32,000 bases of DNA from Pyrodictium delaneyi. GTDB lineage: Archaea; Thermoproteota; Thermoprotei_A; Sulfolobales; Pyrodictiaceae. The stretch is taken from positions 30,001-62,000 of the forward strand of contig NZ_CP013011.1 in assembly GCF_001412615.1 (NCBI RefSeq), given 5' to 3'. Below the pieces are notes generated by a model. That model worked only from the letters and a program-made list of their open reading frames with translations, had not been told where the DNA came from and made no database searches. Made by a program: the position numbers and the translations under genes. Positions 4,440 to 30,656 of the stretch are shown piece after piece (positions within the stretch are counted from its first letter, which is position 1; each line of letters starts with the position of its first letter).

Positions 4440-4765
4440 GGGCTCCGCGCGGGTAGGGCTGGGGGCTCGCCCTCCCCCGAGCCCCGAAATGGGCGTAATG
4501 CGGGGGCCAGTAACCCGCACGCTGGCCACGGCGGTCCACGGCAGACCCGGCCGACCAATGACCCCCGTCCCGCGGGGCCGGCGGCGGCGGAGCCCCCTCC
4601 GGAGGGAGGGAGGCTACCGCCCTTACCGGGGGAAACAGGCCAGGCCCGGAAGGGAGCAACCTAACCCCGGACGCCCGGCGTTCGCGGGGGTGCGGGGTGA
4701 GGCAACGGCCGGGCCCCCTGCCGCGGCGCCGTCGTGGCTGGCGTGCGGGGGCCGCGCGGGCCCTC
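4440..4765 (+). ncRNA. Signal recognition particle RNA (archaeal 7S/SRP RNA)
   Basis: Very GC-rich ~325-nt block. The universally conserved helix-8 motif CAGGCCAGGCCCGGAAGGGAGCAACC sits at 4635-4662 (compare E. coli 4.5S CAGGUCAGGUCCGGAAGGAAGCAGCC). The 5' end GGGCUCCGCGCGG (4440-4452) pairs with the 3' end CCGCGCGGGCCC (4752-4764) as a terminal helix. Ends are approximate, within about 10 nt. Confidence 0.88.
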
Positions 4766-11630: not shown

Positions 11631-11708
<78 letters not shown>

Positions 11709-14757: not shown

Positions 14758-15387
14758 TCATGTGCTTATACGTAGTAGTCCTCCTTGCTCGGCTAGCCTG
14801 ATTGCCTGATCTCTGCTTATGATTGTGATGGCTTGACCTATGGTTGATGCGAGTTCTTGAAGGGCGTATACGAGTAGGGGTAGTTCTCCCCAGATTCTTT
14901 TGCCTATAAGCTTCTGTGTTAAGCGGGAAAGCCGTCTCCCTATGTAGCGTGCCAGTGTTTTCAAGGCGTCCTCAACCCTGTTGACTATGTTTACTGCCTC
15001 TATTCTTGCTAGCCTCTTTGCGCCCCTAGTGTAGCCTCTTGGTGCGTAGAGGATGTACACTATGTCTCCGGAGGTGAAAACCTTTCCTCGCAGCTTGGCT
15101 ACGTGTTGACGGAGACGTCGTATCCTGCGTAGGAGCTGGCTTGGCGAGACAGGACGGCTCTCTTGTGTGCTCGTATAGAGTGCTAGTACTAGGGGGTTAC
15201 TCGCAGGTAGGTGGAGTGTGAGGACTGTTATTGTATAGTCGCTTGTCTGATCTAGCCTGGATACTCCGGCTAGTAGCGGGTTTATTATCCTCCATGCTGC
15301 ATAGTAACGTCTAGCTCCTCTTAGCAGAGGGAGAAGTAGCTCGTTGAGAGTTGCTAGTCGTTGTTGTCGCCGCTGTTGTGGCTGCAT
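14758..15387 (-). CDS. Arg-rich hypothetical protein (orphan)
   Basis: 209-aa ORF, co-directional with and 165 bp downstream of ABCE1. No recognised domain. Confidence 0.5.
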   Translation of the reverse strand: MQPQQRRQQRLATLNELLLPLLRGARRYYAAWRIINPLLAGVSRLDQTSDYTITVLTLHLPASNPLVLALYTSTQESRPVSPSQLLRRIRRLRQHVAKLRGKVFTSGDIVYILYAPRGYTRGAKRLARIEAVNIVNRVEDALKTLARYIGRRLSRLTQKLIGKRIWGELPLLVYALQELASTIGQAITIISRDQAIRLAEQGGLLRIST

Positions 15388-15552: not shown

Positions 15553-17532
15553 CTATTCTTCTTCCTTCTCCTCCTTCTCGCCAGGCCTCGGTATGTAGTA
15601 GTACTTGCCTAGACGTTTCTGCATACGGTCTAGGAAGCTGTCCTCCTTGTTTATCCGTGGACGGCCGGTCTCAGGGTCCTTCCGTATAGTTATGCCGAGT
15701 TCTCGTAGGAACAGATTCATTCCCTCGGGGAGTGGTAGTGGCTTCGAAGCCTTGCCGTGGCTTCCAGGCGTACCCGTGAACACTAGTATGCGGCTAGCTA
15801 TGTAGTCTTGTACGGCGATGTCGTGTTCTACTATTATGGCTGCAGCGCCGCGTGCCTCTGTTAGCCGGCGGATAGCCTTGGCAACAGACAGCCTCTCCTC
15901 TACGTCAAGGTATGCCGAGGGCTCGTCAAGGAGGTATATATCGGCCTCTCGTGCCAGTGCTACGGCAACAGCCACTTTCTGTAGCTCGCCGCCGCTAAGC
16001 TCGGCTATTCTCCGGTCGAGCAGCCTGTCTACTCGCAGCCTCCTAACAATCTCTACGTTGAGCCAGGAGCCCGGCGAGAGAGTGGAGGGGTTAGCCTCTC
16101 TCAGTAGCTGCTCGACTGTGGCGTCGCCTCCGAGATTTTCAGGATTCACGTACTGTGGCTTGTAGCTTATCCGTAGCTGGCCCTCGGGCTTGTCTATGTT
16201 GCCCTCGGCTGGCTCGAGCTCGCCGGCTAGAGTGCGTACGAATGTGGTCTTGCCTATGCCGTTGGGCCCGACTACGCCGAGCACTTCTCCCTCGTGGAGT
16301 TCGCCGGGCTCTGCTTCTAGGGTGAAGCCGTCTAGGCGTACTACTAGCCGGCTCCAGCCTATGTAGCGGCGGGTCTGCTGTACCTCTTGTTGCTGAGTGA
16401 AGCTGATAGTGTATTTTATGGGCTCGCTTCTTATCCTCATGTTCTCTGCAGGCAAGTAGCCCTTGAGGAAGTGGTTTATCCCTGTCCTGACGCCGTAGGG
16501 TTTTGAGGCTATACCGTAGACTCCCGGCTCACCGTACATCACAACCACGTGGTCAGACAAGTAGTCGAGCATAGCTATATCGTGCTCTACGACAACTACG
16601 TAGCTGCCGCTGGGCACGTAGCGGCGTATAACCCTCGCTACGCGGATGCGCTCACGTATATCCAGGTAGCTACTAGGCTCGTCGAACAGGTAGAGGTTCG
16701 CATCCTTGCTTAGTACAGCTGCTACTAGGAAACGCTGCAGCTCGCCGCCGCTAAGCTGACGTATATCCCGGTCAAGGAGGTGTGACAGGTTAAGCTCCTT
16801 GACTAGCTCCTTCCATATGCCGCGTTCATCCGCCTTCTCGAGGAGTGTGGAGAGCTTACCACGCACGCGCCTCGGAACCATATCCACGTACTGTATCTTG
16901 TGAGCAGCTCTTATCTTGCCCTCGGCTAACATCCTAAAGTAGTTTTGTAGCTCGGTGCCACGGAACTGTCTAACAACCTCGTCCCACTCGGGGGGTTTGT
17001 CCTCAACCCTGCCTAGGTTTGGCCTAAGCTCTCCCGCTAGTATGCGTAGGGCAGTAGACTTACCTGCTCCATTCTTACCTATAACGCCCAGTATCTTACC
17101 CTCGCGGGGTATCGGCAGCCCGTAGAGCTTGAACCCATTCTTCCCATAACGGTGTACAAGCATCTTCTCTAGCTCATCCGGCAGGTTGACAATGCTTATA
17201 GCCTTGAAGGGGCACTTCTTGACGCATATACCGCAGCCTATACATGTCTCTTCATAAATAACAGGCTTCTTTCGAGCATTGTCAATCTCTATAGCAGTTC
17301 CTCCAGTTAGGTTTACGGGGCAGAATGCTATACACTCCTTGTTGCACTTACTGGGCTTACAAAGCTCGTAGTCTATGACGGCGACCCTAGTCACTGGGCA
17401 GCCCCGAGCCTTCGGACAAGCCCAGACGGGCTCATAAGACTCTACTGAGACGCCTGCAGAGAAGCCTATGGTATAGCTCCTCTGGGGCAAAACCGGTATA
17501 AGGACAGAGCGGTGGCAGAGACCAACTACCAT
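15553..17532 (-). CDS. ABCE1 / RNase L inhibitor homologue (ribosome-recycling ATPase with an N-terminal 2x[4Fe-4S] domain)
   Basis: It has the FeS domain CKPSKCNKECIAFCP and CIGCGICVKKCP, plus two ABC cassettes (Walker A GKNGAGKST and GPNGIGKTT; signatures LSGGELQR and LSGGELQK). The first 46 codons of the ORF have no counterpart in ABCE1, so GTG 17394 (VTRVAVIDYELCKP) is the likelier start. Confidence 0.95.
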   Translation of the reverse strand: MVVGLCHRSVLIPVLPQRSYTIGFSAGVSVESYEPVWACPKARGCPVTRVAVIDYELCKPSKCNKECIAFCPVNLTGGTAIEIDNARKKPVIYEETCIGCGICVKKCPFKAISIVNLPDELEKMLVHRYGKNGFKLYGLPIPREGKILGVIGKNGAGKSTALRILAGELRPNLGRVEDKPPEWDEVVRQFRGTELQNYFRMLAEGKIRAAHKIQYVDMVPRRVRGKLSTLLEKADERGIWKELVKELNLSHLLDRDIRQLSGGELQRFLVAAVLSKDANLYLFDEPSSYLDIRERIRVARVIRRYVPSGSYVVVVEHDIAMLDYLSDHVVVMYGEPGVYGIASKPYGVRTGINHFLKGYLPAENMRIRSEPIKYTISFTQQQEVQQTRRYIGWSRLVVRLDGFTLEAEPGELHEGEVLGVVGPNGIGKTTFVRTLAGELEPAEGNIDKPEGQLRISYKPQYVNPENLGGDATVEQLLREANPSTLSPGSWLNVEIVRRLRVDRLLDRRIAELSGGELQKVAVAVALAREADIYLLDEPSAYLDVEERLSVAKAIRRLTEARGAAAIIVEHDIAVQDYIASRILVFTGTPGSHGKASKPLPLPEGMNLFLRELGITIRKDPETGRPRINKEDSFLDRMQKRLGKYYYIPRPGEKEEKEEE

Positions 17533-17652
17533 GGCTAGCTATGGGGAGTGGTGACGGCACAGAGCCGCTCCTCGGTTTAAGAACGTAAGCCTTCCATTCA
17601 AAAAGCCCGGGGAGCTAGGCGGTGAAGAGAGGCAAGGTATGCCGACGCTAGC

Positions 17653-17760
17653 TTACCACTCCTCCTCTTCCCATTCCTCCTCTTCTTCTTCCCACCATTC
17701 TTCTTCCTCTTCTTCTTCCTCCCACCACTCCTCTTCCTCGTCTAGAAGGAGCCACTTCAT
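17653..17760 (-). CDS. Candidate 35-aa micro-protein MKWLLLDEEEEWWEEEEEEEEWWEEEEEEWEEEEW (may instead be a non-coding polypurine tract)
   Basis: My own translation, with ATG at 17760-17758 and TAA at 17655-17653. GGTGG lies 7-11 nt upstream (17767-17771), and AATTAAAG, a TATA-like box, lies ~55 nt upstream (17812-17819). A T5 run follows on the coding strand at 17600-17604. It is too short for the supplied ORF track. Confidence 0.3.
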   Translation of the reverse strand: MKWLLLDEEEEWWEEEEEEEEWWEEEEEEWEEEEW

Positions 17761-17865
17761 CGTGAGCCACCACAGTTAATCGCTTCCACGCTTCAGCTAC
17801 TCCCGGAGCTTCTTTAATTGTTTCCCCATCACTTTTCCAGGCTAGCTATGGGAATCAAAAGAGAG

Positions 17866-18399
17866 CTATAGTGTCTCCGAGAAGCGGTAGATCCGCTCCT
17901 CTATAGGGAATACAGCTAAACGAGTCACCCTGGAGCGGTAATGGCTACATTCGGTATCTACACAGTTCTCTACGGGCTCTAGTCTCTCTGACGGTCTCGG
18001 TACGGCCTCGCCGGCCTTGATGCTGTACGCTAGGGCTATTACTACGTGCTCTCCAGGCCTGGGCGCATACTCCTCAAGGACTTTAGCAATGTTCCTCTGG
18101 CCAGCAAGATACAAGAGTACATCTATGCCGGGGTTCCTAGCTATACCGTACCCCTGGATGCGTGTAGTGTAAACTGCTAGTATGGTTGACGCTATTTCCC
18201 AGGCGCAGTAGCTCTTAGCGAGCCTCGCTGGTATAATGGAGGCAAGTACTCCCCTATCCCAGGCGCTACGTAGCTCTTCCTCGAGGCCGTTACTATACCT
18301 GGTACAGTAAAGTTCGACGGCTACTCTACCTATCCCCGGTAGTAGCTGTACCCATTCTACGCGTGTTGAAGATCTTTTTGATGAATTCAATATCCTCAC
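17866..18399 (-). CDS. cgi121: KEOPS complex subunit Cgi121-like protein
   Basis: IARNPGIDVLLYLAGQRNIAKVLEEY..GEHVVIAL parallels the Cgi121 block (I recall M. jannaschii IAKSFWMEILVRASGQRQIHEAIKIIG..GNVCLIC). The ORF overlaps the upstream gene by 74 nt, so the true start is probably internal, near 18360. Confidence 0.55.
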   Translation of the reverse strand: MRILNSSKRSSTRVEWVQLLPGIGRVAVELYCTRYSNGLEEELRSAWDRGVLASIIPARLAKSYCAWEIASTILAVYTTRIQGYGIARNPGIDVLLYLAGQRNIAKVLEEYAPRPGEHVVIALAYSIKAGEAVPRPSERLEPVENCVDTECSHYRSRVTRLAVFPIEERIYRFSETL

Positions 18400-19668: not shown

Positions 19669-21363
19669 ATGGCTGCACGTATCGCAACTGTGGAGCCTAC
19701 TGGCGTACCAGTGCTAATCCTCAAGGAGGGTACCCAGAGGACCTACGGTAAAGAGGCACTACGCGCAAATATAATGATAGTGCGTGCAATCGCAGAGACT
19801 TTGCGCACCACATACGGTCCTAAGGGTATGGACAAGATGCTAGTAGACAGCCTAGGCGACATAACAATAACCAACGACGGTGCGACTATACTCGACAAGA
19901 TGGACGTACAGCACCCAACAGCCAAGCTAGTAGTCCAGATAGCTAAGGGCCAGGACGAGGAGGTAGGCGACGGTACAAAGACTGCAGTGATATTCTCCGG
20001 CGAGCTACTCCGCTTTGCTGAGGAGCTACTCGACAAGAACGTGCATCCAACAATAATCATCAGCGGCTACAAGAAGGCAGCTGAGGAGGCCATAAAGAAG
20101 CTATATGAGCTAGCCGAGCCTATCGACATAGAGAACGAGGAGATCCTCAAGAAGATAGCTAAGACAAGCCTAACAAGCAAAGCAGTGCACGGTGCACGCG
20201 AGTACCTAGCAGAGATAGTCGTAAGGGCAGTCAAGCAGGTAACCGAGAAACGTGGCGACAAGTGGTACATAGACCTCGACAGCATACAAATAATCAAGAA
20301 GCATGGTGGTGGACTCCGTGACACCCAGCTAATCTACGGTATTGTGCTCGACAAGGAGGTTGTACACCCTGGCATGCCCAGGAAGGTTGAGAACGCTTAC
20401 ATTGTACTCCTCGACGCTCCACTAGAGGTCGAGAAGCCGGAGATCGACGCCGAGATAAGGATCAGTGACCCGACATACTTGAAGAAGTTCCTCGAAGAGG
20501 AGGAGCGCATCCTCGAGGAAATGGTTGAGAAGATCTATAGTGTTGCTGTTGAGCGTATGAAGAAGGATGGTCTGGAGCCCGGTAAGGCTGGCATCGTGGT
20601 AATAACCCAGAAGGGCATCGACGAGGTAGCACAGCACTTCCTAGCCAAGAAGGGCATAATGGCAGTAAGAAGAGTAAAGAGGAGCGACATTGAGAAGATA
20701 GCTAAGGCCACTGGTGCCAGAATAGTAAGCAACGTCGAGGACCTAACACCAAACGACCTTGGTTTCGCTAAGCTAGTAGAGGAGAGGAAGGTCGGCGAGG
20801 ACAAGATGGTGTTCATAGAGGGCTGCCCCAACCCCAAGGCAGTAACGATACTCATACGTGCTGGTCTAGAGAGGCTAGTAGACGAAGCTGAGAGAAGTAT
20901 ACAGGACGCGATGCATGCAGTAGCCGACGCCATAAGGGATGGTAAGATAGTCAGTGGTGGTGGCGCTGTAGAGGTAGAGCTAGCCAAGTACCTACGCGAG
21001 CTAGCGCCAAAGGTTGGCGGTAAGGAGCAGCTAGCTATAGAGGCATTCGCACGCGCCCTAGAAGGCCTACCAATGGCACTAGCAGAGAACGCTGGCCTAG
21101 ACCCAGTAGAGATAATGATGAAGCTACGTGCTGCACACTCTAAGCCAGAGGGTAAGTGGTATGGCATTAACGTATTCACCGGTGAAGTTGAGGACATGAT
21201 GAAGCTAGGCGTAATAGAGCCGGTAAGCATTAAGGCCAACGCCATCAAGGCTGGTACAGAGGCAGCAACAATGGTGCTAAGGATAGACGACATAATCGCT
21301 GCTGCACGCCGCGAAGAGAAGGAAGAGGAGAAGAAGGAGGAAGAGGAGAAAGAGGAGGAGTAA
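19669..21363 (+). CDS. ths: Thermosome subunit (group II chaperonin)
   Basis: 564-aa [37 protein letters not shown] and an acidic EEKEEE tail are canonical group II chaperonin blocks. Confidence 0.96.
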
Positions 21364-23279: not shown

Positions 23280-23367
23280 TGGCGCCGGGGGCGGGATTTG
23301 AACCCGCGCGGGGTGGACCCCCACCGGCTTAGCAGGCCGGCGCCCTACCAGGCTAGGCGACCCCGGC
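23280..23367 (-). tRNA. tRNA-Ser (anticodon GCU), long variable arm, CCA encoded
   Basis: Reverse complement: GCCGGGG..CCGGC CUGCUAA GCCGG UGGGGGUCCACCCCGCG CGGG UUCAAAU CCCG CCCCGGC G CCA. The anticodon loop reads GCU, and the 17-nt variable arm is typical of class II Ser tRNA. Confidence 0.92.
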
Positions 23368-26141: not shown

Positions 26142-26301
26142 TGGTCCCGCCGCGGGGATTCGAACCCCGGACCGCCCGGTATCTGCCTCCCAGGCCCCCG
26201 ATGCCGACGCGCCCTCATCCAGCCCCCGTCGGGGGTGTCGGGCGCGTGGGGGGCCTGAGCCCCACCTACAGCCGGGCGCTCTGCCGCTGAGCTACGGCGG
26301 G
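26142..26301 (-). tRNA. tRNA-Tyr (anticodon GUA) with an 85-nt intron at the canonical 37/38 position
   Basis: Exon 1 (26301-26266): CCCGCCG UA GCUC AGCGGCA GAGC G CCCGG CUGUAG. Exon 2 (26180-26142): A CCGGG CGGUC CGGGG UUCGAAU CCCCG CGGCGGG A CCA. The C1-G72 pair is the archaeal Tyr identity pair. The intron spans 26265-26181. CUGU (32-35) can pair with intron GCAG, flanked by the 3-nt bulges AG|G and AU|A. Confidence 0.88.
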
Positions 26302-29873: not shown

Positions 29874-30656
29874 CTACATGTATGCTCGCTCGCTGCTCGG
29901 CGGTGTCAACATATCACGCTGTTGCTGTTCCATCATTGTGATCATCTCCTCTATTTTCCTTGCTTGTTCTAGTAACTCGTCTATACTGAACTTCAAGCCG
30001 TACAACTCGTTTATCTTCTCTATAGCCGCTGCGGCAGCTCTCGGGTCCGGGCGGGCAGCCTCGGTATAGGGTAACACTGCAAGTGCTGGATAACCTCTCA
30101 CCTCTGCATGGAAGAGAAGCAACGCTAAGGGACCAACAACGTAAAGACCTTTATCCATGCGTGGCTCCTCCAGGCTACGTGTATAGGCTGATGTAGCTAC
30201 CCAGCGAAGTTTTTCATCACCTTGCTTAAACCGTGAATCAAATCCTCCTATGAGCACGGCTTCCTTAACACCTATAGTAGCTAGGAAATCAACTATAGCC
30301 TCAGCAAATCGGCTACGCTCTTGTACTACAGGTATATCGTGGTTAACTAGTAGCGCTATACGTTTTCCATTATTGTTACAACTATATAGGGTGAAGGGGC
30401 CTACAACGCCATTCGAGCTAGGTGTAACAGCTTCCGGCATGTACTTCGTTATAATATAGCCAGCCTCCTTGCATTCAGCGGTATCAGCTAGATGTAGTGT
30501 TGCAATATACCCGACGGCACCGTACCCCTTAAACCCTGTTATGAAGAGGTCTGCATTCTCAAGCTCACTGGAATAGGCTATTCTGATTGTTTTAAACTTG
30601 TGTATGTTAAACCGGCTCACTATCTCACACCTCTGGTGAATCATGCTACTCGGCAA
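29874..30656 (-). CDS. PAC2-family proteasome assembly chaperone/activator (PbaB-like) with a C-terminal HbYX motif
   Basis: FITGFKGYGAVGYIATLHL parallels, from memory, PbaB FIEGLPGIGLVGKLAAEHL. It has a coiled-coil tail and ends in ...ERAYM (hydrophobic-Tyr-X), like the PbaB DRGYL ending. Starts at TTG 30656 or ATG 30644. Confidence 0.65.
   Translation of the reverse strand: MPSSMIHQRCEIVSRFNIHKFKTIRIAYSSELENADLFITGFKGYGAVGYIATLHLADTAECKEAGYIITKYMPEAVTPSSNGVVGPFTLYSCNNNGKRIALLVNHDIPVVQERSRFAEAIVDFLATIGVKEAVLIGGFDSRFKQGDEKLRWVATSAYTRSLEEPRMDKGLYVVGPLALLLFHAEVRGYPALAVLPYTEAARPDPRAAAAAIEKINELYGLKFSIDELLEQARKIEEMITMMEQQQRDMLTPPSSERAYM

Follow-up and report, generated by a model that had tools for sequence, protein, structure and literature searches.

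The stretch of DNA considered here (the window) comprises 32,000 nucleotides of the archaeon Pyrodictium delaneyi, from position 30,001 to 62,000 of contig NZ_CP013011.1. Between the gene of the ATPase ABCE1 and a Cgi121-like gene it contains a tract which, read on the minus strand, opens as a very short reading frame made of little else than glutamate and tryptophan codons (17653-17760). The question raised by this locus is whether such a tract is a gene at all and, if so, whether its product has anything to do with ABCE1, an essential ribosome-recycling ATPase which ranks among the best-conserved proteins in both archaea and eukaryotes. To our knowledge, no archaeal ABCE1-specific partner, maturation factor or regulator has been described. 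The comparison of loci set out below shows that the tract is a real, so far unannotated protein-coding gene under strong purifying selection. Its product can be regarded as the founding example of a micro-protein family, the function of which is here read from sequence, gene order and analogy.

Coding evidence for the micro-ORF

The micro-open reading frame (micro-ORF) at 17653-17760 on the minus strand consists of 35 codons and a TAA stop, and encodes the peptide MKWLLLDEEEEWWEEEEEEEEWWEEEEEEWEEEEW, with a mass of 4.88 kDa and a net charge of -22. A preliminary description of the window, made from its letters alone, had given its composition as 22 Glu, 1 Asp and 7 Trp, bracketed by ATG and TAA, and translation of the reverse complement bears this out, with no Gly at all: the codons ATG AAG TGG CTC CTT CTA GAC are followed by GAR and TGG only, until TAA is reached. 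The flanking motifs had been placed correctly as well. On the same strand, a Shine-Dalgarno (SD)-like GGTGG (17767-17771) lies 7-11 nt 5' of the ATG, and an element resembling a transcription factor B recognition element and TATA box, GGGGAAAC-AATTAAAG (17812-17827), is recognisable at the motif level 52-67 nt 5' of the ATG, the AATTAAAG part of it covering 17812-17819 (52-59 nt 5' of the ATG). Past the stop codon, at a distance of 49-53 nt, an oligo-T run on the same strand (T5, 17600-17604) is a candidate archaeal terminator, and we infer that it serves the micro-ORF as such. Its position had been given rightly, but it falls within a convergent, antisense box C/D small RNA (sRNA) gene, in the internal loop of the sRNA, which the preliminary description had not recognised. 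In the public annotation with which the locus was compared (P. delaneyi strain Hulk, GCA_002194565.1, NCQP01000002.1), a gap of 470 bp separates ABCE1 from an upstream gene of 174 amino acids (aa), and no gene is called in it.

Since purine tracts remain open in several frames, the reading frame alone is no proof of coding, as the preliminary description had itself cautioned, and the proof has to be supplied by comparison. In fact, this tract has the strongest purine/pyrimidine skew of all 90-nt stretches of the 32-kb window, with a plus-strand purine content of 9% (the 0.1-percentile value of the window is 17%). The comparison with the spacers of relatives that had been proposed was the decisive one. 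One genome per species was scanned by means of ABCE1, giving 16 Pyrodictiaceae/Desulfurococcales loci in which ABCE1 is 71-91% identical, and the micro-ORF was present on the ABCE1 strand in all of them, that is, in 17/17 when the window is counted. Together with 7 further distinct metagenome loci and 7 from Bathyarchaeia and Hecatellales, 27 distinct versions of 28-50 aa were available, about 20 of them from Desulfurococcales and 7 from Bathyarchaeia/Hecatellales. Start, frame and stop are preserved in all versions and length differences are always of whole codons; in the codon alignment, the lengths (99-120 nt) differ by whole Glu codons only.

The variation within the tract follows the codons. 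Glu is encoded by 209 GAG and 189 GAA in the codon alignment (n=398), the two switching freely between species, and this switch would alter the amino acid in both of the other frames. The pairwise differences in the Glu/Trp columns are distributed over codon positions 1, 2 and 3 as 148:203:1677. AAG, AGA, GGA and GGG, any of which would leave the purine tract intact, never occur in the core of the 27 versions, and Asp is nearly never tolerated in the Desulfurococcales core. The core Trp codons are either invariant or replaced by TTC or TTT, as seen in the loci L010-L013, where the change from TGG to TTY requires two nucleotide substitutions and keeps the aromatic character. Moreover, the stop codon may be TAA, TAG or TGA depending on the locus, and it always follows immediately upon the final TGG. 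The codon-position pattern, the replacement of Trp by Phe and the whole-codon indels all point to purifying selection on the peptide in the GAR frame. The case illustrates how low-complexity micro-ORFs which are open in several frames can be validated through codon-position-specific variation.

The signals around the frame recur across loci too. In 22/24 loci, against a background of 0.38, an SD-like element agrees with GGAGGTGATCC over 4 nt or more, and in 12/24, against a background of 0.096, over 5 nt or more. After the stop, 23/24 loci have four to five T in a row, in most cases 12-57 nt away, and an equivalent upstream A/T box, conspicuous even in GC-rich loci, appears as …AAAG(A/G)GTTTAAGAA…, GGTTAAGAAGG or GGTTAAAA. 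In Bathyarchaeia, a conserved TATA-like AAAnTTTAAGTAGTAG precedes the micro-ORF and GGAGG stands at -14 to -8 in 6/6 loci. Putative promoter, SD and terminator signals are thus all present at the motif level, which, with the coding signature in two distant archaeal lineages, agrees with the layout of an independent small gene on the ABCE1 strand suggested earlier. Codon choice does not favour SD-like elements. GAG makes up 45% of the Glu codons of the micro-ORF, compared with 81% in the neighbouring genes of the window (p=2e-4), and family-wide the choice tracks the genomic bias (r=0.79) with a shift to GAA where the genome is GAG-rich. This share of GAG below that of the genome indicates that long GAG-only runs, which are SD-like and prone to slippage, are avoided and not selected. 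The transcript of the window micro-ORF is predicted to fold no better than its shuffled versions (z=+0.39), and searches of Rfam, both at the gathering threshold and at E<=10, gave nothing relevant for the region as a structured RNA.

A family of acidic micro-proteins

Members outside the scanned genomes were found by DNA patterns and by composition, and not by protein homology. A degenerate DNA pattern for WW-E7-10-WW-E6 matched 13 metagenome contigs, 7 of which represent new lineages. In viral contigs it gave no match, and a viral origin of the tract, which had been considered, was rejected. In two of the metagenome loci (L079 and L081), an ABCE1 gene whose product is 53-59% identical to that of the window lies 160-180 nt 3' of the micro-ORF. 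Furthermore, a composition scan of the collected loci revealed members in Bathyarchaeia and Hecatellales (L021-L024, L026 and L039, that of L037 being degenerate), which take a form of their own, with single Trp residues spaced by E3-6 and an …EEEW-stop end, for example MPADLLKAEEEDFDEEDWSEEEEEWGEEEEWVEEEEW.

All members are built alike: a short hydrophobic N-cap is followed by stretches of 3-10 Glu which alternate with Trp and now and then with Phe, and the chain closes with an invariant …Glu-Glu-Trp-COO⁻. All 27/27 peptides end in EEW, and their net charge ranges from -19 to -27. Within a given lineage the aromatic residues change neither in number nor in order, and every member has the C-terminal Trp, while the lengths of the Glu spacers vary, so that the helical register of the Trp residues drifts by 100-200° between members. 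A fixed amphipathic helix was considered as the conserved feature and rejected on account of this drift, which rather suggests flexible anchors set on acidic spacers.

Standard tools of annotation and homology detection miss this family. A word-indexed homology search with the 40-aa stop-to-stop reading returned no candidate, an exhaustive phmmer search of 1.84 billion representatives gave 0 matches to the micro-protein, and the exact window peptide is absent from the protein collection searched. Neither Pfam (E<=1) nor NCBIfam contained a match, and the PDB yielded only a chance one (E=4.5). A 45-mer from Bathyarchaeia, used as query, recovered itself alone, an unnamed singleton which is the one member that has been called as a gene. 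HMMER is probably made blind to sequences of this kind by its composition correction, which would explain why DNA patterns and a composition scan were needed. In the literature searched, the EEWWEE motif occurs in no relevant context, nor is a comparable archaeal leader or partner of ABCE1 described. The earlier statement that no family of such composition is known holds for every library of proteins, domains and structures searched. Neither there nor in the literature searched did we find a family, domain, leader peptide or partner of ABCE1 that resembles the micro-protein, whose composition, distribution and linkage set it apart.

Gene neighbourhood and the association with ABCE1

The gene downstream of the micro-ORF had been named as ABCE1, and so it is: ABCE1/RLI, at 15553-17394 on the minus strand, matches NF009945 with 897 bits. 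Its longest ORF would begin with an ATG at 17532 and comprise 659 aa, but to judge from the N-terminal motif V/M-x-R-V-A-V-I-D, which is conserved, and from the public annotation (613 aa), the start is the GTG at 17394, which gives a protein of 613 aa and leaves 17395-17532 outside the true gene. Across loci, the starts of ABCE1 are frequently other than ATG (GTG or TTG). Wherever downstream sequence exists, ABCE1 lies on the same strand and 3' of the micro-ORF in all loci but one, the exception being a single short contig. ABCE1 itself is about 50% identical (51-55%) between the lineages which bear the micro-ORF, and since order and orientation have been kept between lineages so far apart, there are strong grounds for inferring that the function of the micro-ORF is tied to ABCE1.

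The arrangement differs between lineages. In Bathyarchaeia the micro-ORF and ABCE1 form an isolated co-directional pair with a spacer of 57-72 nt in four loci (82-120 nt in Hecatellales), flanked by genes of the opposite strand, Sua5/TsaC upstream and NurA-HerA downstream; ABCE1 begins there with an SD-led TTG, and the pair is probably carried by one transcript. In Desulfurococcales, the spacer measures 250-590 nt and holds the convergent box C/D sRNA gene. TATA-like boxes can be read in the sequence between the sRNA gene and ABCE1 of these loci, which suggests that ABCE1 has a promoter of its own in this lineage. In one locus (L073), an RPB9/TFS-like Zn-ribbon gene is interposed between the micro-ORF and the sRNA/ABCE1 part (positions 685-960 of the oriented locus; 91 aa; PF02150, E=1e-11), its product having an acidic C-terminal tail. 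In another (L075), the micro-ORF is retained and the downstream gene is a Na+/H+ exchanger instead of ABCE1.

Upstream, the neighbours differ in identity, and include Cgi121, DUF2204 and acetyl-CoA synthetase-like genes. The gene at 17866-18399 of the window (minus strand) had been named as Cgi121, a subunit of KEOPS, and a Cgi121-like gene is the upstream neighbour in Desulfurococcales. The assignment is upheld by synteny and by homology to the syntenic ORFs at the upstream side of related loci (tblastn, with E-values as low as 1e-21), among them, in a weak alignment (E=0.005), that of L081, which is a CGI-121 protein (PF08617, E=5e-9). Taken alone, the window gene has only a weak, sub-cutoff match to NF011465 (E=1.2e-4) and no Pfam match. 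A gene of the N6-threonylcarbamoyladenosine (t6A) pathway thus flanks the micro-ORF in both lineages, the co-directional Cgi121 in Desulfurococcales and the divergent Sua5/TsaC in Bathyarchaeia (L086, L087 and L088). In L077 and L081, a Urm1/SAMP-like protein ending in GG is encoded 5' of Cgi121. The possibility that the micro-protein is a C-terminal extension or frameshift product of Cgi121 was rejected, given that the long stop-to-stop reading of L004 and L072 is not conserved and that a promoter-like box and an SD element intervene. Another idea, that the peptide is a precursor of a ribosomally synthesized and post-translationally modified peptide or of a Trp/Glu-derived cofactor, found no radical-SAM or other maturase gene in any neighbourhood.

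The box C/D sRNA gene occupies 17534-17652 on the plus strand, convergent to the micro-ORF, the stop codon of which directly adjoins the 3' stem of the sRNA. Its parts are a 5' stem (17534-17539), a degenerate C box (AUGGGGA, 17541-17547), a D' guide (GUGGUGACGGCA, 17548-17559), a D' box (17560-17563), a C' box (17622-17628), a D guide (17629-17641), a D box which is degenerate in the window (CCGA, 17642-17645) and the 3' stem (17647-17652). This anatomy, in the order stem, C, guide, D', C', guide, D, stem, was read in 20 Desulfurococcales loci, with the canonical AUGAUGA…CUGA in L073, L079 and L081 and RUGANGA…CUGA or CCGA elsewhere. The terminal stems covary (CCGGC/GCCGG, GGCGGC/GCCGCC, GGCGTG/CACGCC, GCTAGC/GCTAGC), as does position 5 of the C box with position 2 of the D box, and the predicted fold (z=-2.05) is closed by the terminal stem. 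Only L010 and L012 depart, by one base, from the otherwise conserved 12-nt D' guide GUGGUGACGGCA; for the window copy, folding predicts an internal hairpin in which the guide is hidden, and the predicted target, 5'-UGCCGUCACCAC-3', has no match within the window. Rfam contains no match to the sRNA, whether the gathering threshold or E<=10 is applied. The micro-ORF is bracketed by two exact copies of a direct repeat of 13 nt, GGCTAGCTATGGG (17533-17545 and 17840-17852), one copy comprising the 5' stem and the start of the C box of the sRNA, the other lying just 3' of the Cgi121 stop; a second repeat nearby (17561-17573 and 17889-17901) matches in 12/13 positions. The first repeat was considered as a target-site duplication or signature of insertion, and this was rejected because L001, the closest relative, has the micro-ORF but not the repeat. 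The repeat is thus not conserved, and it may stem from a local duplication.

Other acidic sequences occur around ABCE1. The remaining long purine runs of the window encode the Glu/Lys-rich C-termini of ABCE1 (…PGEKEEKEEE, 15553-15600) and of a thermosome subunit (21313-21360); the acidic C-terminal extension of ABCE1 is found in most Pyrodictiaceae and is absent in Bathyarchaeia and in lineages which have no micro-ORF. In two Thermoproteus loci (L030 and L033), which have no Glu/Trp micro-ORF, the gene about 50-70 nt 5' of ABCE1 ends in a strongly acidic …EELEELRKQLLENLQEGEEVED-stop, which may be a coincidence or a functional substitute. Directly 3' of ABCE1 in the window, an Arg-rich ORF of 209 aa (14758-15387, minus strand) is publicly called and has no Pfam or NCBIfam match. 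The RNA genes of the window are one signal recognition particle RNA and three tRNA, at 4446-4758 (plus strand), 11634-11708, 23283-23367 and 26145-26301 (all on the minus strand), the tRNA gene at 26145-26301 spanning 157 nt and probably containing an intron.

Possible modes of action and comparison with known systems

The reading that we favour, and to which we would give an even chance, is that of a docking peptide which works in trans, is hyper-acidic and anchored through Trp, and has its function linked to ABCE1. Docking elements are classically designed in this way, as acidic runs closed by an aromatic residue whose carboxylate is free. The product would be a flexible polyanionic peptide, the Glu runs of which would contact a basic surface, while the Trp side chains, and chiefly the free carboxylate of the C-terminal Trp, would serve as anchors. 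What argues for action in trans is that the peptide is equally strictly conserved where the cis coupling to ABCE1 is broken, be it by the sRNA gene, by the insert of L073 or by the other neighbour of L075. In its most concrete version, the micro-protein would be an adaptor dedicated to ABCE1 for the maturation of its twin [4Fe-4S] domain, carrying a C-terminal acidic-Trp-carboxylate signal, that is, a minimal archaeal counterpart or forerunner of eukaryotic Lto1, a proposal drawn by analogy which we regard as doubtful. Alternatively, it would be a mimic of the ribosomal stalk tail or of rRNA which modulates the engagement of ABCE1 with the ribosome.

The analogy with Lto1 is based on the following. 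Eukaryotic Rli1/ABCE1 is the one client of the CIA pathway (cytosolic iron-sulfur cluster assembly) which requires a dedicated adaptor, Yae1-Lto1, and the conserved C-terminal Trp of Lto1 (Phe in some organisms) binds the CIA targeting complex. [quoted passage not shown] Binding is dominated by the terminal aromatic residue and the carboxylate, which occupy a pocket of Cia2 pinned by arginines at the Cia1-Cia2 interface.

Several observations weigh against a trans-acting partner of ABCE1, in general or in its Fe-S version. Sulfolobales-like and Thermoproteales loci have no micro-ORF, so that archaeal ABCE1 has no universal need of it. When the columns of ABCE1 were compared with the presence or absence of the micro-ORF, a few were discriminating but formed no coherent basic patch, the groups being phylogenetically confounded. 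Hyper-acidic N-terminal sequences are reported to abort translation in bacteria and eukaryotes, and hence it cannot be taken for granted that the peptide is made efficiently. AlphaFold2 predicts a single helix (mean predicted local distance difference test score 89), a single-sequence prediction for poly-Glu which deserves little weight. As regards the Fe-S version, the neighbourhoods examined contain no Fe-S assembly genes, the TCR signal is reported to be absent from the archaeal homologues of CIA clients, the antepenultimate residue of the micro-protein is Glu (27/27) and not Leu, Ile or Met, and the micro-protein has no deca-GX3 motif, by which Lto1 binds Yae1/Rli1.

The chief rival explanation, rather unlikely in our judgement, is that of a cis-acting leader, in which what matters is the translation of the Glu/Trp ORF upstream of ABCE1 and not the free peptide. 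In one version, the poly-acidic N-terminal chain stalls or destabilises the ribosome (intrinsic ribosome destabilization, IRD), to an extent tuned by Trp/Phe and the bulky N-cap; in another, termination at the Trp-stop leaves un-recycled ribosomes which re-initiate at ABCE1, providing feedback on recycling capacity. The micro-ORF is always upstream of ABCE1 and never downstream, and in Bathyarchaeia, with the isolated pair and the SD-led TTG start, it would be located in the ABCE1 5' leader, since a spacer of 57-72 nt is too short for a separate promoter and SD leader. Moreover, the risk of IRD peaks for acidic runs near the N-terminus and is counteracted by bulky residues near the tunnel entrance, so that the periodic Trp/Phe and the bulky N-cap could be explained with no docking role at all. 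Twin-ABC ATPases and recycling factors are reported to be implicated in coping with IRD-type sequences. Almost every locus has a T-run after the ORF, and in 6/6 Bathyarchaeia loci a pairing between the C/U-rich spacer and the G/A-rich ORF is predicted.

Nevertheless, these features have their counterparts. The separation of 250-590 nt in Desulfurococcales, with a convergent sRNA gene bearing its own boxes and TATA-like boxes ahead of ABCE1, speaks against a leader, and so do the protein gene interposed in L073 and the different downstream gene of L075, where the peptide is no less strictly conserved. The predicted RNA structure is weak in comparison with shuffles, not only in the window but also in Bathyarchaeia (z=-0.7 to -1.7 in 5/6 loci). 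Furthermore, ABCE1 is thought not to be recruited in eukaryotic IRD, and IRD has not been demonstrated in archaea. The trans-acting peptide and the cis-acting leader are not mutually exclusive.

It is improbable, to a greater degree, that the micro-protein is real and has a partner other than ABCE1, being either a general polyanion (a nucleic-acid mimic, or a buffer of cations, polyamines or basic proteins) or a partner of the t6A/KEOPS system, in which case the adjacency to ABCE1 would be an inherited gene order. This would agree with the t6A-pathway gene that flanks the micro-ORF in both lineages, with the locus L075, which keeps the micro-ORF and has no ABCE1, and with the fact that no feature of ABCE1 covaries with the presence of the micro-ORF; in addition, a charge of -19 to -27 and spacers of variable length fit a non-specific electrostatic binding. 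On the other hand, the relation between the ORF and ABCE1 is the sole one conserved in both order and strand, whereas the upstream neighbour changes identity and strand. The invariant EEW-COO⁻ and the constancy of Trp in both number and order favour a specific pocket over bulk charge, and bulk electrostatics would not demand the near-absence of Asp in the Desulfurococcales core.

Finally, the non-coding readings put forward in the preliminary description, a purine-rich RNA with SD-like elements or a structural polypurine·polypyrimidine DNA tract, are effectively excluded by the comparison of loci: although the tract is open in several frames, is the most strand-skewed of the window, has been left uncalled by gene callers and has no homologue in the protein databases, only the third position of GAR admits the exchange of one purine for the other, the core has TGG kept or replaced by TTY and its purine alternatives unused, start, SD and Trp-stop are preserved, indels are of whole codons, the GGAGG-making GAG is under-used and there is no excess of RNA structure.

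What the locus provides is a gene of extreme composition, deeply conserved from Pyrodictiaceae to Bathyarchaeia, tied to ABCE1 and missed by standard annotation and homology tools. Either of the two leading mechanisms, if true, would be new for archaea. A trans-acting partner would open a route to the maturation or control of archaeal ABCE1 and possibly an evolutionary link to Lto1 and the C-terminal-Trp code of Fe-S proteins; should it be an Fe-S adaptor, the C-terminal Trp grammar for the delivery of [4Fe-4S] to ABCE1 would be older than eukaryotes. A leader, in turn, would be the first case in which an acidic, "hard-to-translate" nascent chain regulates a ribosome-recycling factor. Both mechanisms are directly testable, given that P. 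delaneyi strain Hulk has been isolated and sequenced and that the peptide is small enough for chemical synthesis.

In this context, four known systems deserve comparison. As regards the leader, MgtL is a bacterial leader peptide whose acidic nascent chain aborts translation and which, by means of alternative RNA structures and Rho, controls the downstream gene. The micro-ORF resembles it in being a short upstream ORF with an acidic run a few residues past the initiator Met, the effect being modulated by bulky residues. It differs in that no significant alternative RNA structure was found for it, in being often uncoupled from ABCE1 and in that the whole micro-protein, including its last residue, is conserved across classes.

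Among proteins, DSS1/Sem1 is a eukaryotic, acidic and disordered "glue" of about 70-90 aa, anchored by Trp and acting as a mimic of single-stranded DNA. It shares with the micro-protein the small size, the hyper-acidic and probably disordered character and a few conserved Trp between acidic stretches. The differences are that the micro-protein has no Pfam match (E<=1), DSS1 included, and that DSS1 mixes Asp and Glu with many other residues and follows no C-terminal Trp rule. We know of no archaeal counterpart of DSS1/Sem1 and of no link between it and ABCE1.

Closer to the translation apparatus is the C-terminal tail of aP1, the stalk protein in archaea, which binds aEF1A, aEF2, aIF5B and ABCE1, docking to nucleotide-binding domain 1 of the latter through L103, L106 and F107, residues of a hydrophobic helix. 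Both sequences are flexible, acidic, predicted to be helix-prone and provided with a hydrophobic or aromatic end, and that of aP1 does dock translation factors. However, its docking is mainly hydrophobic, with an LxxLF-G end, whereas the micro-protein ends in EEEW, with no C-terminal Leu/Phe pattern, is far more charged and would be a free peptide, the aP1 tail being tethered to the ribosome. The earlier suggestion of an acidic/aromatic peptide acting on the translation apparatus, modelled on this tail, is thus favoured by the conserved linkage to ABCE1 and fails at the level of the stalk-tail motif.

The last comparison is that with Lto1 and the TCR signal. The micro-protein has the C-terminal Trp with its free carboxylate in 27/27 versions, and Glu as penultimate residue likewise in 27/27; Phe is the substitute aromatic residue in both cases, though in the micro-protein at internal positions only; the signal ends a tail of variable length in both (3-45 residues in the case of TCR signals); and both are related to ABCE1, a relation which for the micro-protein consists in genomic adjacency only. 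Besides the unlike antepenultimate residue and the deca-GX3 motif already mentioned, the TCR receptor is eukaryotic, and there is no sequence homology between a micro-protein of 35 aa and a protein of about 150 aa. The adaptor for Fe-S maturation is consequently to be taken as an analogy and a lead rather than as membership of a known class.

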